The notes under the pieces were generated by a model. That model was not told where the DNA came from. It did not search any database and saw only the letters and a program-made list of their open reading frames with translations. This document shows positions 57,754 through 61,021 of a DNA stretch of 64,000 nucleotides, piece after piece. A program made the position numbers and the translations under genes. The stretch's first letter is position 1. The number at the start of each line of letters is the position of its first letter. Source of the DNA: a phage; NCBI GenBank assembly GCA_033286805.1, contig GCA_033286805.1_4727.1, one strand, 5' to 3'.

Positions 57754-58287
57754 TTAAGCTCCTTTGTGTTTTACGGACGATGTTAACCAGGACGATCTTA
57801 CCGTGAAACCCTCAGACTCGTAGAACGCCTGGGCTTCAGCGTTATCAGCACGAACATCCAGACCAATAGAATGCCCGCCGCATCGGTAAGCGATGTTGCG
57901 CGCTTCATTCATCAAGGCATGACCGATCCCACGTCCGCGATATTCGGGTTTTACAATAATCGATGTAACGTCATGAATGCCCATATGGCTCTCTGTATTC
58001 ACTTCCAAGAGGCCTACCGGTATCGAAGCGATAGCATCGATCATAACGACCAACATTGCAGTATCTGGTAAACGCTTTTCTAATTCTAAAGCATCGTACT
58101 CGCGTTTTAAATCGGGGATATTCTCAAACATAAACGTGGTAGCCCATGCCTCTGATTCTACATCGTCGAGAATACGGTACAGCTCACGAATCTGTCGTTT
58201 ATGTGGGTAAAGGTGTGGATCGGCAGCCGTTGAGGCGATAACGCAATAGAACTGTCGTTCATTAATAACTACTGTTTTGATGCTCAT
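57754..58287 (-). CDS. GNAT-family N-acetyltransferase
   Basis: Acetyl-CoA motif VKPEYRGRGIGHALM and AQAFYESEGF; GAGGGAA SD; ATGA overlap with the upstream HTH gene. Confidence 0.75.
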   Translation of the reverse strand: MSIKTVVINERQFYCVIASTAADPHLYPHKRQIRELYRILDDVESEAWATTFMFENIPDLKREYDALELEKRLPDTAMLVVMIDAIASIPVGLLEVNTESHMGIHDVTSIIVKPEYRGRGIGHALMNEARNIAYRCGGHSIGLDVRADNAEAQAFYESEGFTVRSSWLTSSVKHKGA

Positions 58288-58790
58288 GCTAAAATTCCCT
58301 CATTACCTAACAGTCGATTACGATGACGTCGGTACATTTGACAAAGTGTTGTGATTTGATAATGTTTGTTGTAACGTACCTCGATACGTTTTTGCACCTC
58401 TTTCCATGGAAGTTTATCGTATTGCCGATAACGATGGATTTCATTTAACATACGAAGACGAGTAGGATCGGTGTTCTTTATCGTCGTGAGCTTCACACGT
58501 TGATATCCACGCTGTAGTCCTGATTCGGAATACGTGACGTCAAACTCATCTTGAATGATGGTAATGATCTCCCGCCACCGACGGTTCTCGCCGTCACGTA
58601 AATGGACAACCCGCGATAAGATATCGTTCCGATTACGATGACTCAGTTTAATGTTAAGCATTGAAGCAATCGCGCTAATTGCTCTCTGACTCCGTCCTAA
58701 CGCTTCACCTATTTCTTTCGATGTCATGACGCCCGCGTTTCGGCGTATGAATGCGATTTCGGTTGTTGTGTATTCTTTACCTGCTGCCAT
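58284..58790 (-). CDS. HTH DNA-binding protein, tandem paralog 1
   Basis: YTTTEIAFIRRNAGVMTSKEIGEALGRSQRAISAIASML helix-turn-helix-like repeat. Confidence 0.6.
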   Translation of the reverse strand: MAAGKEYTTTEIAFIRRNAGVMTSKEIGEALGRSQRAISAIASMLNIKLSHRNRNDILSRVVHLRDGENRRWREIITIIQDEFDVTYSESGLQRGYQRVKLTTIKNTDPTRLRMLNEIHRYRQYDKLPWKEVQKRIEVRYNKHYQITTLCQMYRRHRNRLLGNEGILA

Positions 58791-59254
58791 TTCTTACCAC
58801 GTGTGTTATAATAGTAACGCTGACAAAGATGTGTGTGACGGTACTCCCGTTTGAACTCGACGCTGATAATGCGAGCAACTTCTCTCCAGTTAACTCCTTC
58901 ATGCCGAAGTGCTGTAATACGGTCTGAAATTTTGCACCATTCATCTGGGTCGTATCGTCGTAGCTTGAGTCGTCGTATTACGGAGGCGACACTCGCTCTC
59001 GATCGGCCAAGATGATTTGACAGTTGTTTAACCGAGTATCTGTGGATATTGTCGCGAATATAGGAAATCTCGTTGTTCGTATATGCCTCATTGGTTCTCG
59101 ACGAAGGGAACAGCATATACAACTTATTCTTAATCGCGCTTTCTGTGCGTTGAAATACAATAGCCAGATCACTAACCGGTGGTCTGGGTATCTGATCCGC
59201 GTAACTCTCGAGGCGTGAGAGTTCCTCATCTGTCCAGCGACGGTATTTGCGCAT
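58724..59254 (-). CDS. HTH DNA-binding protein, tandem paralog 2
   Basis: Start moved to ATG 59254 (MRKYRRWTDEELSRL) with AAGGAG SD; two HTH-like repeats. Confidence 0.6.
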   Translation of the reverse strand: MRKYRRWTDEELSRLESYADQIPRPPVSDLAIVFQRTESAIKNKLYMLFPSSRTNEAYTNNEISYIRDNIHRYSVKQLSNHLGRSRASVASVIRRLKLRRYDPDEWCKISDRITALRHEGVNWREVARIISVEFKREYRHTHLCQRYYYNTRGKKWQQVKNTQQPKSHSYAETRAS

Positions 59255-59729
59255 AGGCAACTCCTTTGTTTTTCGTGTAGTAACACCAACGTTGATACAA
59301 CGCATGTTTATTCGTTGTAATCCCAAATTTAACAACAACGTCGTATGTGATAACATTCCAATTTTGGGTAACGTTAAGTCGTTCCGCGATAAACGCGATA
59401 ATCGCTTCCCGTTCTTGCTTGGTGAGCGCACGACGAATTCCATTAAGCCGTATAAACTGACGAACCGAGTCATACGAACGGTTTAAATCGTACGCAATCT
59501 CACGCAGCGATTTTTGTTTGATTACGGACTTGATGTACGCGCGTTCTTCTTCCGTATAAGGTCGATGCTTTTGGCGTTGACGTATTCCCAAACGTCCCAG
59601 ACGCGCGTCGATGCTGGCGCGTGTTCGTCCTGTCCGTTGTGCGATTTCATCAATCGTCATCGATGTGTTTAAGTACAGATGCGTGACGTCTTTCAGCTCG
59701 TCGTCACGCCATGGTTGAGATCGTCCCAT
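59226..59729 (-). CDS. HTH DNA-binding protein, tandem paralog 3
   Basis: WRDDELKDV...MTIDEIAQRTGRTRASIDARLGRLGI plus a second repeat; start/stop overlaps with neighbours. Confidence 0.65.
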   Translation of the reverse strand: MGRSQPWRDDELKDVTHLYLNTSMTIDEIAQRTGRTRASIDARLGRLGIRQRQKHRPYTEEERAYIKSVIKQKSLREIAYDLNRSYDSVRQFIRLNGIRRALTKQEREAIIAFIAERLNVTQNWNVITYDVVVKFGITTNKHALYQRWCYYTKNKGVAYAQIPSLDR

Positions 59730-60207
59730 CTTGTATCCCTCTTTTCTTTCTATGATGCCACCAACGCTGATAGACAGCCTGCTTCGTACGTGTTATACCG
59801 AAATGCGCATTAACCCGTTCAGCAATGTGGTGCCAATCCTGTGTTTCTTCCAACAATGTATCAACGAAGGCTACGAAGATCTTAGTATCAGCCTCGCTTA
59901 ACCGCTTGAAACCATGACGGTGTGCTATCGTTCTAATACTGTTTGGATCCCTGTTTAAATCGCGTGCGAGTTGTTTGTAACTTTTGTGTTTGCAGTGTGC
60001 TCTGATATATTCCAACTCATCGACACTGAAACGTTTATGCGGTTTACGACGTTCAACATTTAAGTATATCAACCTCGATTTAATTGCACCGTACGTTGTT
60101 TCCATGATTTCTGCGATTTCACGGATTTTTAATTTCGGGTGACGATAGTACAATTCCAGCAACTGTTCATCATCCTTACGATTCCATCGTCGTACTGGAG
60201 GTTTCAC
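59704..60207 (-). CDS. HTH DNA-binding protein, tandem paralog 4
   Basis: RRWNRKDDEQLLELY...IREIAEIMETTYGAIKSRL plus a second repeat. Confidence 0.65.
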   Translation of the reverse strand: MKPPVRRWNRKDDEQLLELYYRHPKLKIREIAEIMETTYGAIKSRLIYLNVERRKPHKRFSVDELEYIRAHCKHKSYKQLARDLNRDPNSIRTIAHRHGFKRLSEADTKIFVAFVDTLLEETQDWHHIAERVNAHFGITRTKQAVYQRWWHHRKKRGIQDGTISTMA

Positions 60208-60220
60208 AACGAGATTTCTC

Positions 60221-60688
60221 CTATTCTGCGCGTTTTAATGCTTGAGTGTAGTAGAGGCTATGAACACCGCTTAACGTGTAATGGGTGTTAAATTCGTTAT
60301 TGATGATATTCCGTATTCTCTCCCAGGTGTTATTCTCTTTTCTAAGGGTGTGTATTCGATAATAAATCATCTCTCGACGTTGCGCTTTGCATGCAACAAT
60401 ACCGTAACGGTAGCAGAGTTTAGCGATTGCATCCACGCTACGATTGAACATCACTGCGGCTTCTTTTACGCTATGCGTCTTAAGATAATCAGCTAACATC
60501 ACGCGTTCTTCGAAACAGCAATAGCGGTGACGCGACGTGAGTTTCCAACGCTTGCGATTACGGTTAATTCGACCTTGAACAGAGCCTTCTGTTCGGTCAA
60601 GCCGTGCCGCAATCTCTTGCATCGGGATACCGTTTCGGTACAGAGTAATCAATATCGCGTCTTCTTCGGGTGTCCAGTCCTTGACCAT
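60221..60688 (-). CDS. HTH DNA-binding protein, tandem paralog 5
   Basis: WTPEEDAILITLYRNGIPMQEIAARLDRTEGSVQGRI resembles the GcrA N-terminal / Myb-like HTH. Confidence 0.65.
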   Translation of the reverse strand: MVKDWTPEEDAILITLYRNGIPMQEIAARLDRTEGSVQGRINRNRKRWKLTSRHRYCCFEERVMLADYLKTHSVKEAAVMFNRSVDAIAKLCYRYGIVACKAQRREMIYYRIHTLRKENNTWERIRNIINNEFNTHYTLSGVHSLYYTQALKRAE

Positions 60689-60700
60689 AGTGCCACCCCA

Positions 60701-61021
60701 TTAACGTCTTACTTTAAGCGGTATTCTGTTTCGAAAACAATAACACCGGATGGCGTGTACGCTACGATTCATTATTTCAGCAATTTCATTTAGGCTATGC
60801 TTCTTCGCAAGCATAGCAACCCGGGTTCTTTCTTCTGGCGTGTAAACTCCCCCACGAGGAGGTAGGTCACCTCGTCGTTTCCTCAACTTGAGGTAACGTG
60901 CGCGAATAGAACACGGCGTCCGATCCATGCAGCGCGCTATTTCTTTATAGCTCGCTTTTGGTGACGTGCTAAGAATAAGTAGCAATGCTTCATCTTCTTT
61001 ATCCGTCCAACGTTTACCCAT
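60701..61021 (-). CDS. HTH DNA-binding protein, tandem paralog 6
   Basis: Start moved to ATG 61021 ([13 protein letters not shown]) with AAGGAG SD; two HTH-like repeats. Confidence 0.6.

Follow-up and report, generated by a model that had tools for sequence, protein, structure and literature searches.

An array of six tandem helix-turn-helix genes, encoding putative D5-like or Myb-like DNA-binding proteins, beside the DNA ligase gene of a Goslar-like jumbo phage

The closest described counterpart of the genes treated here is D5 (T5.118) of phage T5: an early gene whose product is likewise a chain of helix-turn-helix (HTH) repeats, of the form W/F-T-P-x-x-E...EIA...G-R/K, and which lies directly after ligA/ligB (NAD-dependent ligase) and before the DnaB-like D6 in the replication module. 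According to the T5 record, D5 binds DNA, is needed for DNA replication and late transcription, and takes part in shut-off. Among jumbo phages, a survey by Iyer et al. (2021; PMC7824862) reports that 92% encode 1 to 15 specific transcription factors, notes that Myb-type HTH factors have expanded in Bacillus phage G, and suggests that phiKZ-group phages may combine their own transcription factors with their own RNA polymerases. Here we describe six consecutive paralogous genes, P1 to P6, on the minus strand (positions 58284-61021) of a 64,000-nucleotide (nt) stretch of phage DNA (contig GCA_033286805.1_4727.1 of assembly GCA_033286805.1; below, the window). Their products are very probably nucleic-acid-binding tandem-HTH proteins. 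The reading that we favor, and hold at even confidence, is that they are regulators or architectural factors of the D5-like/Myb-like kind in a Goslar-like jumbo phage.

Goslar is a nucleus-forming jumbo phage of Escherichia coli (a chimallivirus). Region 58000-61300 of the window is 96.2% identical in nucleotide sequence to Escherichia phage vB_EcoM_Goslar (NC_048170), whose gp119 to gp114 correspond, in order, to P1 to P6; the Goslar record gives gp114-gp119 as hypothetical proteins, one of them as "SANT/Myb domain-containing protein." The genes, with their orthologue groups (OG1 to OG6) and lengths in amino acids (aa), are as follows.

60701-61021, minus strand: P1 (OG1; Goslar gp119), 106 aa, modules A-B, with an AAGGAG Shine-Dalgarno sequence.
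60221-60688, minus strand: P2 (OG2; gp118), 155 aa, modules A-B-C.
59704-60207, minus strand: P3 (OG3; gp117), 167 aa, GTG start, modules A-B-C.
59226-59729, minus strand: P4 (OG4; gp116), 167 aa, modules A-B-C; its closest paralogue is P3.
58724-59254, minus strand: P5 (OG5; gp115), 176 aa, modules A-B-C plus a 22-aa C-terminal tail.
58284-58790, minus strand: P6 (OG6; gp114 with a longer start), 168 aa, modules B-C-C; the conserved member.
58724-58790, minus strand: overlap of the P5 tail and the P6 N terminus, 67 nt coding in two frames as read from the sequence.

A preliminary description, made from the letters of the window alone, had noted six paralogous minus-strand genes in this interval, and both the open reading frames (ORFs) and BLASTP bear this out. 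Pairwise identities are 22-38%, with E values from 1e-27 (P3/P4) to 1.7e-5 for most pairs; direct comparison of P6 with P3 or P4 was not significant. The paralogy of the six genes is far beyond chance. A family hidden Markov model run against the six-frame translation of the window matched these six ORFs only and revealed no further paralogue. Of the lengths given earlier, 106 to 177 aa, the lower end was right; the longest protein, P5, has 176 aa from the ATG at 59254, and its gene has the same 531-nt length as Goslar gp115. The GTG start of P3 aligns with an ATG at the same codon in orthologues. The only DNA-level trace of the duplications is a 57-nt direct repeat of 72% identity (60425-60481 vs 60749-60805), which corresponds to the B modules of P2 and P1.

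The family alignment and AlphaFold2 (AF2) models resolve each protein into consecutive three-helix HTH modules, with the layout A-B in P1, A-B-C in P2 to P5, and B-C-C in P6. Module A has the pattern W-x-x-EED...EIA...R-T and module B YT-x-EE...EIA...NRS; the two are true internal repeats (hhalign of A vs B: probability 97%, E = 3e-11), and the C-terminal segment rich in Trp and Tyr forms a further three-helix module, C, which is Myb-like. Thus, the two HTH repeats formerly ascribed to each protein are real, except that P6 lacks module A, and the Trp/Tyr-rich segment ascribed to all six is present in P2 to P6 but absent from P1. Near-invariant aromatic residues are the first Trp of module A and one Trp and one Phe in module C. 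All six are highly basic proteins, with pI values of 9.7-10.5 and net charges from +11 to +16; each module is net positive, and the A-B linkers are short and mostly rich in Arg and Lys. Helix-3 sequences differ between orthologue groups and are conserved within each group.

The HTH fold emerged from both profile searches and AF2. The model of P3 (predicted local distance difference test score [pLDDT], 84.7) has nine helices in three three-helix bundles (residues 10-22/28-34/39-48, 62-71/77-84/88-98, and 105-121/125-136/142-155), and the model of P6 (pLDDT, 79.6) also has three such bundles. Predicted template modeling scores of 0.44-0.50 suggest that the modules may be flexibly linked, which would explain why no whole-protein Foldseek match to the PDB reached an E value below 0.09 and why informative matches appear at module level only. 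The top whole-protein matches, all weak (E ≥ 0.09), were multi-HTH DNA binders: the Tc3 bipartite domain, SNAPc4 Myb repeats, Reb1, DUX4, and Pax6. Searched against PDB sequences, the family profile matched 2lvs, a two-HTH CRISPR-repeat-binding protein (E = 4.6e-10), and c-Myb R1R2R3 (1h88; E = 9e-6).

Family models point the same way. For P1 to P4, Myb_DNA-binding, Myb_DNA-bind_6, Sigma70_r4_2, and HTH_23 score at or just above their Pfam gathering thresholds: P1 reaches 34 bits for Myb_DNA-binding (PF00249; cut-off, 24.4) and 33.5 for PF13921 (22.9); P2 reaches 33.7 for Sigma70_r4_2 (25.7), which P3 and P4 also pass; and residues 105-151 of P3 (module C) reach 28 for Myb_DNA-bind_6 (PF13921; 22.9). 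P2, P4, P5, and P6 lie below the Myb cut-offs, and an NCBIfam scan returned no model above its cut-off. All six proteins match PHROG 323, "transcriptional regulator, D5-like," with E values of 8e-10 to 3e-18 (P1, 7e-18; P2, 8e-17; P4, 3e-18; P5, 3e-17) over profile positions ∼92-270 of 319; PHROGs have no curated cut-off, and T5 D5 itself scores 1e-71 against this profile. The preliminary description missed this family, the closest described, and had proposed a resemblance to GcrA, Myb/SANT, or NUMOD modules. An HTH type akin to Myb/SANT, the GcrA N terminus, and σ region 4 is supported by Pfam (P1 to P4) and AF2, whereas the NUMOD/nuclease part fails, as no nuclease domain is present.

Several other assignments were considered and rejected. 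For GcrA, P2 scores 14.3 bits against PF07750 (cut-off, 26.9) in the N-terminal HTH only, and structural similarity is confined to one module. For a σ70 factor, region 2 is missing and NCBIfam σ models score 16-20 bits against cut-offs of 43-323. RecX, which has three tandem three-helix repeats, gave neither a sequence-family nor a whole-protein structural match. For a homing endonuclease, no nuclease family was found in Pfam at E values up to 1, and the PHROG HNH matches cover HTH parts only.

The array also resembles T5 D5 in its surroundings: it adjoins an NAD-dependent ligase gene on the downstream side, here and in all relatives. Its two flanking genes are the following.

61014-63083, minus strand: NAD-dependent DNA ligase, adjoining P1 upstream with an 8-nt overlap (ORF, Goslar annotation, and Pfam on orthologues).
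57754-58287, minus strand: GNAT acetyltransferase, adjoining P6 downstream with an ATGA overlap (Pfam Acetyltransf_1; E = 1e-14).

The ligases of the window and T5 are only 23-32% identical; thus, the shared ligase-D5 order does not represent a recently shared block, and cotransfer of ligase and D5 from a T5-like source was rejected. In a P2-like Salmonella prophage, the gene immediately upstream of that for the gpA replication initiator is a further PHROG 323 relative. T5 D5 differs in being a single 255-aa gene with, by our own reading, about four repeats, compared with six genes of 106-176 aa and A-B-C layout here, and module C has no clear counterpart in it. The role of D5 in double-stranded-DNA binding, replication, and late transcription is described in the T5 record and in PMC13405049; for the six proteins the same would follow by likeness. 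The proteins match the D5-like family, genes of this kind sit beside replication genes in three unrelated phage types, and the array is, in all likelihood, cotranscribed early with ligase (see below); for these reasons we favor, as the most economical, a D5/Myb-type reading as early DNA binders. T5 also has a putative replication-origin-binding helicase, T5.108 (L011 4546-7332), for which its record cites IPR001005 and IPR001410. If these are, as we take them to be, the entries for SANT/Myb and DEAD-like helicase domains, then D5 would not be the only T5 replication protein with Myb-like modules.

Junctions within the locus are tight. The ligase and P1 genes overlap by 8 nt and P6 and GNAT by 4 nt; P1/P2 and P2/P3 are separated by spacers of 12 and 13 nt, and P3/P4, P4/P5, and P5/P6 overlap by 26, 29, and 67 nt, respectively. 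Overlaps of 8-70 nt, as originally proposed for the whole array, therefore hold for three of the five internal junctions but not for P1/P2 and P2/P3. A Shine-Dalgarno-like sequence precedes each of the six genes, the weakest being that of P6. P1 and P2 share a reading frame with one stop codon between them, an arrangement that is not kept in the Goslar-like relative L008; the other genes are spread over three frames.

Published RNA sequencing (RNA-seq) data for Goslar, taken 30 min after infection, compare infections in which the nuclear shell protein ChmA was knocked down with a nontargeting control (Armbruster et al., Supplementary Table 2; bioRxiv 10.1101/2023.09.20.558163). In this comparison, gp114-gp119 change by −0.16 to +0.46 log2 units, as does the whole gp106-gp159 block, whereas late genes drop by 4-7 log2 units; the authors equate the ChmA knock-down profile with the early transcriptome (bioRxiv 10.1101/2023.09.20.558163). 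The Goslar orthologues therefore belong to the early, nucleus-independent class. Read density (counts divided by gene length) is about 0.6-1.0 reads per nt from ligase through the array to GNAT, and such similar densities fit cotranscription of all of them. The coupled expression proposed from the junctions is therefore plausible, given the Shine-Dalgarno sequence of each gene, the tight or overlapping junctions, and the lack of an internal element of the type described next.

Matches to σ70 promoters and terminator-like sequences in 57000-64000 were no commoner than in shuffled sequence. A pattern scan identified two elements, each a GC-rich hairpin followed by TATG, that likely form the boundaries of the transcription unit, and none between 57319 and 63410, the array included.

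63411-63454, minus strand: GC-rich hairpin then TATG, the putative upstream boundary or start of the transcription unit.
57290-57318, minus strand: next hairpin then TATG, the putative downstream end of the unit.

The same type of intergenic element recurs elsewhere on the minus strand of the window, at 50425-50460, 43956-43998, about 38410-38460, 33947-33981, 27243-27281, 23676-23717, 12822-12855, 4544-4580, and 1838-1876. Its form is a GC-rich hairpin with a C/T-rich 5′ arm (CCCTTCCC...GGGAAGGG type), a stem of 8-14 bp, and TATG(C) 0-7 nt later. TATG is the late-promoter consensus of the phiKZ nonvirion RNA polymerase (PMC4666361); a late-promoter-like TATG beside early-class genes sits oddly, and the elements may be terminators, promoters, or both.

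The array lies between ligase and GNAT in every Goslar-like contig, with five or six copies. The window and Goslar have six genes with a truncated OG1, L008 has six in which OG1 is full length (152 aa), L003 has a gp120-like gene but no OG1, and L006 lacks OG2. P1 lacks module C, whereas its orthologues L008_1, L004_1, and L006_1, in three related phages, have it at lengths of 152-156 aa; thus, P1 is a truncated copy. Identity to the window is 86-94% for ligase, 84-91% for GNAT, and 88-100% for OG6, but falls to 38-54%, with saturated synonymous divergence (dS), for OG1, OG3, OG4, and OG5. P4, for example, shares only 38.6% identity with its OG4 counterpart in L003 and L006. OG3 to OG5 form two deep haplotypes at 38-56% identity, grouping the window and Goslar with L008 against L003 and L006; for ligase, in contrast, the window and Goslar group with L006 against L008 and L003. 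These conflicting groupings show that OG3 to OG5 were exchanged by recombination as a cassette. Neighboring non-HTH genes (gp112-like and gp122-like) are mosaic as well, at 63-67% in some comparisons, so the array represents extreme local mosaicism rather than a unique feature.

Two accessory features vary nearby. Goslar gp120 (L001 7027-7734; 708 nt, 235 aa) lies between ligase and gp119, between the points equivalent to window positions 61021 and 61014; Goslar and L003 have such a gene and L006, L008, and the window do not, which makes it an accessory-gene indel at the array edge. Upstream of the ligase block, outside the window, a D12-class adenine methyltransferase gene is intact in L006 (2410-3237) and L008 (2904-3728), with 274-275 aa, and split into ORFs of 176 and 113 aa in L004 (714-1540) and L010 (2902-3728); the split could reflect a frameshift or a pseudogene.

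Orthologues in Goslar and four diverged Goslar-like metagenomic contigs yielded ratios of nonsynonymous to synonymous divergence (dN/dS) of 0.05-0.43 over all six genes, similar to those of the flanking ligase and GNAT genes: 0.14-0.35 for P1, 0.12-0.15 for P2, 0.05-0.38 for P3, 0.16-0.19 for P4, 0.21-0.43 for P5, and 0.07-0.10 for P6. Gene lengths and order are kept across phages down to 38% identity. All six are intact genes under purifying selection, and on these ratios they are not pseudogene fragments.

The start of P6 deserves comment. Goslar gp114 is annotated as 147 aa from a start at the ATGA overlap, equivalent to window position 58727. L003_5 and L006_5, which share only 4 nt with the gene upstream, retain the N-terminal sequence EYTTTEIAFIRRNAGV of the longer form, and the 21 extra residues complete helix 1 of module B. 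Because these residues are conserved in the diverged L003 and L006, we favor the start at 58790; the annotated Goslar start is probably too short and the 168-aa form the right one. The 67-nt P5/P6 overlap is lineage specific: in L003 and L006, OG5 stops earlier, giving a 4-nt overlap with OG6, and the C-terminal tail of P5 is absent.

The favored explanation, as probable in our view as not, is a lineage-specific tandem expansion of one kind of tandem-HTH DNA-binding protein (T5 D5-like/Myb-like). Each product is a small protein of two or three independently folded modules. If these behave like those of c-Myb R2R3, the bipartite domains of Tc3 and Pax, and archaeal Cbp1/Cbp2, each module would place its third helix into the major groove, and a single monomer would cover an extended site of some 12-18 bp. 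The genes would be cotranscribed with the NAD-dependent ligase in the early class, independently of the phage nucleus. The paralogues may bind different sites, since helix-3 sequences are group specific and conserved in each orthologue group. Phage DNA would be the target of the six proteins, which would serve there as regulators or architectural factors in replication and the early-to-late switch; a role of this kind is reported for T5 D5.

The data show that the genes are real and paralogous, and they show the fold class, charge, family match, synteny, early expression of the Goslar orthologues, and cassette recombination; DNA binding itself, the differing specificities, and phage DNA as the target are inferred. 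A number of observations weigh against the favored explanation. P5 and P6 passed no Pfam gathering score, and the match of the family alignment to the single T5 D5 sequence is moderate (hhalign probability 67%, E = 5e-5, 93 columns over A-B). Module C, if SANT-like, could mediate protein interaction instead of reading DNA. A search for binding sites near the locus detected no tandem repeats, iterons, or repeated candidate site. Phage DNA is enclosed at the stage when these early proteins arise in the cytoplasm, so they would have to be imported to reach it. In tblastn searches no homologue was found in other chimalliviruses, which implies that the array proteins are not part of the conserved transcription machinery, and our literature search found no paper mentioning Goslar gp114-gp119; the main text of the Goslar virion structure preprint does not mention them either.

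Two alternatives keep the proteins as functional DNA binders. In one, the host takeover that the preliminary description had suggested and that we regard as unlikely, they remain cytoplasmic and attach early to the host chromosome or transcription machinery, silencing or reorganizing host DNA before its degradation. The Goslar orthologues are indeed early and nucleus independent, translation must happen in the cytoplasm, the site of host DNA, and T5 D5 expressed alone is toxic to E. coli (PMC13405049); several modules are also σ-region-4-like, with Sigma70_r4_2 above the Pfam cut-off in the three proteins named above. Region 2, however, is missing and the NCBIfam σ models are far below their cut-offs; two deep OG3-5 haplotypes, in phages that apparently share enterobacterial hosts, would be unexpected for proteins that recognize conserved host sites; and the linked ligase is listed by a review among phage-nucleus proteins (PMC12908238). 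Somewhat more doubtful is a conflict locus, that is, a variable set of DNA binders for phage-phage competition or against host defense, whose possible roles are haplotype-specific recognition of the own genome, shielding of sites from a competitor's homing endonuclease, and escaping or decoying HTH-sensing defenses. Such a locus would account for the recombining OG3-5 haplotypes with their 38-56% identity and saturated dS and for the varying copy content (OG1 missing in L003, OG2 missing in L006, OG1 truncated in the window). T5 D5, moreover, is the natural trigger of retron-Kva2, whose msdDNA is bound by its HTH (PMC13405049), and in HNH endonuclease PHROGs the same modules form the part that binds DNA. 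Yet dN/dS is below 1 throughout, with no sign of positive selection measured; PADLOC gave no meaningful match; the variability extends to non-HTH neighbors and is not confined to the array; and OG6 is conserved.

The remaining alternatives question whether the array serves the phage or consists of real genes. That the genes are selfish leftovers, free-standing DNA-binding domains of degraded homing endonucleases with little or no phage function, is improbable in our estimation: P1, P3, and P4 have weaker matches to the N-terminal HTH arrays of HNH endonucleases (phrog_1891, 8446, and 7545; E = 2e-9 to 4e-3), and BFVD fold matches include endonucleases, but neither the genes nor the stretches between them yielded a nuclease domain or a remnant of one, purifying selection acts on all six, and their order and position are fixed across diverged phages. 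Each gene begins at a module start and P2 to P6 end after a complete module C, which fits whole-gene duplication. Nor does gp120 explain the array as a homing endonuclease; we rejected this because it has no Pfam or PHROG match and no HTH. Finally, the preliminary description had itself raised the prospect that the ORFs are pseudogenized fragments of one larger poly-HTH gene, and long multirepeat relatives in metagenomes as well as the shared frame of P1 and P2 might seem to speak for it. This idea is effectively refuted, and we assign it next to no probability: dN/dS is below 1 in every gene, every one comes with a start codon and a ribosome-binding site of its own, gene length stays constant between phages down to 38% identity, the P1/P2 in-frame layout is not conserved in L008, and the other genes lie in three frames.

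The A-B modules are very widespread. An exhaustive profile search for the A-B unit found 15,103 representative proteins at E ≤ 1e-3, many of them 300-900 aa long with 3-10 copies, whereas the full-length A-B-C family was found only in Goslar-like contigs of about 240 kb. In a tblastn search of P3 and P1 against 50,697 phage records, only Goslar was recovered, along with weak matches (E = 1e-4) to temperate Streptococcus phage genes annotated as "transcriptional regulator" or "GcrA family"; a scan of IMG/VR with P6 found only Goslar and one 97% relative. Goslar-like contigs of ∼237-244 kb with array genes also occur in assemblies labelled as Salmonella enterica and Shigella flexneri isolates, which suggests that Goslar-like phages travel with cultured enterobacterial isolates, be it as contaminants or in a carrier state.

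Chimalliviruses rely on RNA polymerases of their own to transcribe their genomes. We know of no promoter-specificity factor for these polymerases. The phiKZ nonvirion polymerase recognizes TATG promoters without a σ-like subunit (PMC4666361). Six early, cotranscribed, and distinct tandem-HTH proteins beside ligase are thus candidates for the control of timing, replication, and genome identity in Goslar compartments, and the two recombining haplotypes offer a natural experiment on expression, co-infection outcome, and defense triggering. A speculative extension, which we think rather improbable, treats OG3 to OG5 as a recombining "identity cassette" of two anciently diverged haplotypes encoding DNA binders of different specificity. 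If true, the cassette would pick which co-infecting Goslar-like genome is replicated, transcribed, or excluded, or would set which HTH-sensing host defenses (for example, D5-triggered retrons) fire; it would be the counterpart, in lytic nucleus-forming phages, of the heteroimmunity regions of temperate phages, with the conserved OG6 providing a common core function. If the proteins are instead ordinary DNA binders of minor effect, the gain is still one of annotation: gp114-gp119 as D5-like tandem-HTH proteins, with a corrected gp114 start.

Among known systems other than D5, the array resembles the Myb/SANT proteins (c-Myb R1R2R3; PF00249 and PF13921) in its tandem three-helix modules of ∼50 aa and in the W-x-x-EED start of helix 1. 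Myb repeats have three regularly spaced tryptophans; the array modules lack this conserved pattern. With Cbp1/Cbp2 (PDB 2lvs; NCBIfam NF040595) it shares small, basic proteins of two or three linked HTH modules, the 2lvs match spanning A-B, but host and context are unrelated and NF040595 scores of 18.9 and 16.3 bits fall far below the cut-off of 140, so we rejected membership and regard the resemblance as one of architecture. The likeness to phage G is that of a lineage-specific Myb-like HTH expansion in a jumbo phage (PMC7824862), a likeness of description; phage G belongs to a different phage group (the array is in a chimallivirus). With the jumbo-phage transcription-factor sets and the phage G expansion in mind, the preliminary remark that such paralogues are unusual for a phage was overstated; a fixed tandem array and cassette haplotypes are not mentioned in the consulted passages of that survey (PMC7824862). 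Thus, HTH sets and Myb-type expansions of jumbo phages were already known (PMC7824862), and the genes themselves were present, unnamed, in the Goslar record; to these, the present analysis adds the D5-like assignment, the three-module architecture, early expression, the corrected start, the truncated P1, and the recombining haplotypes.

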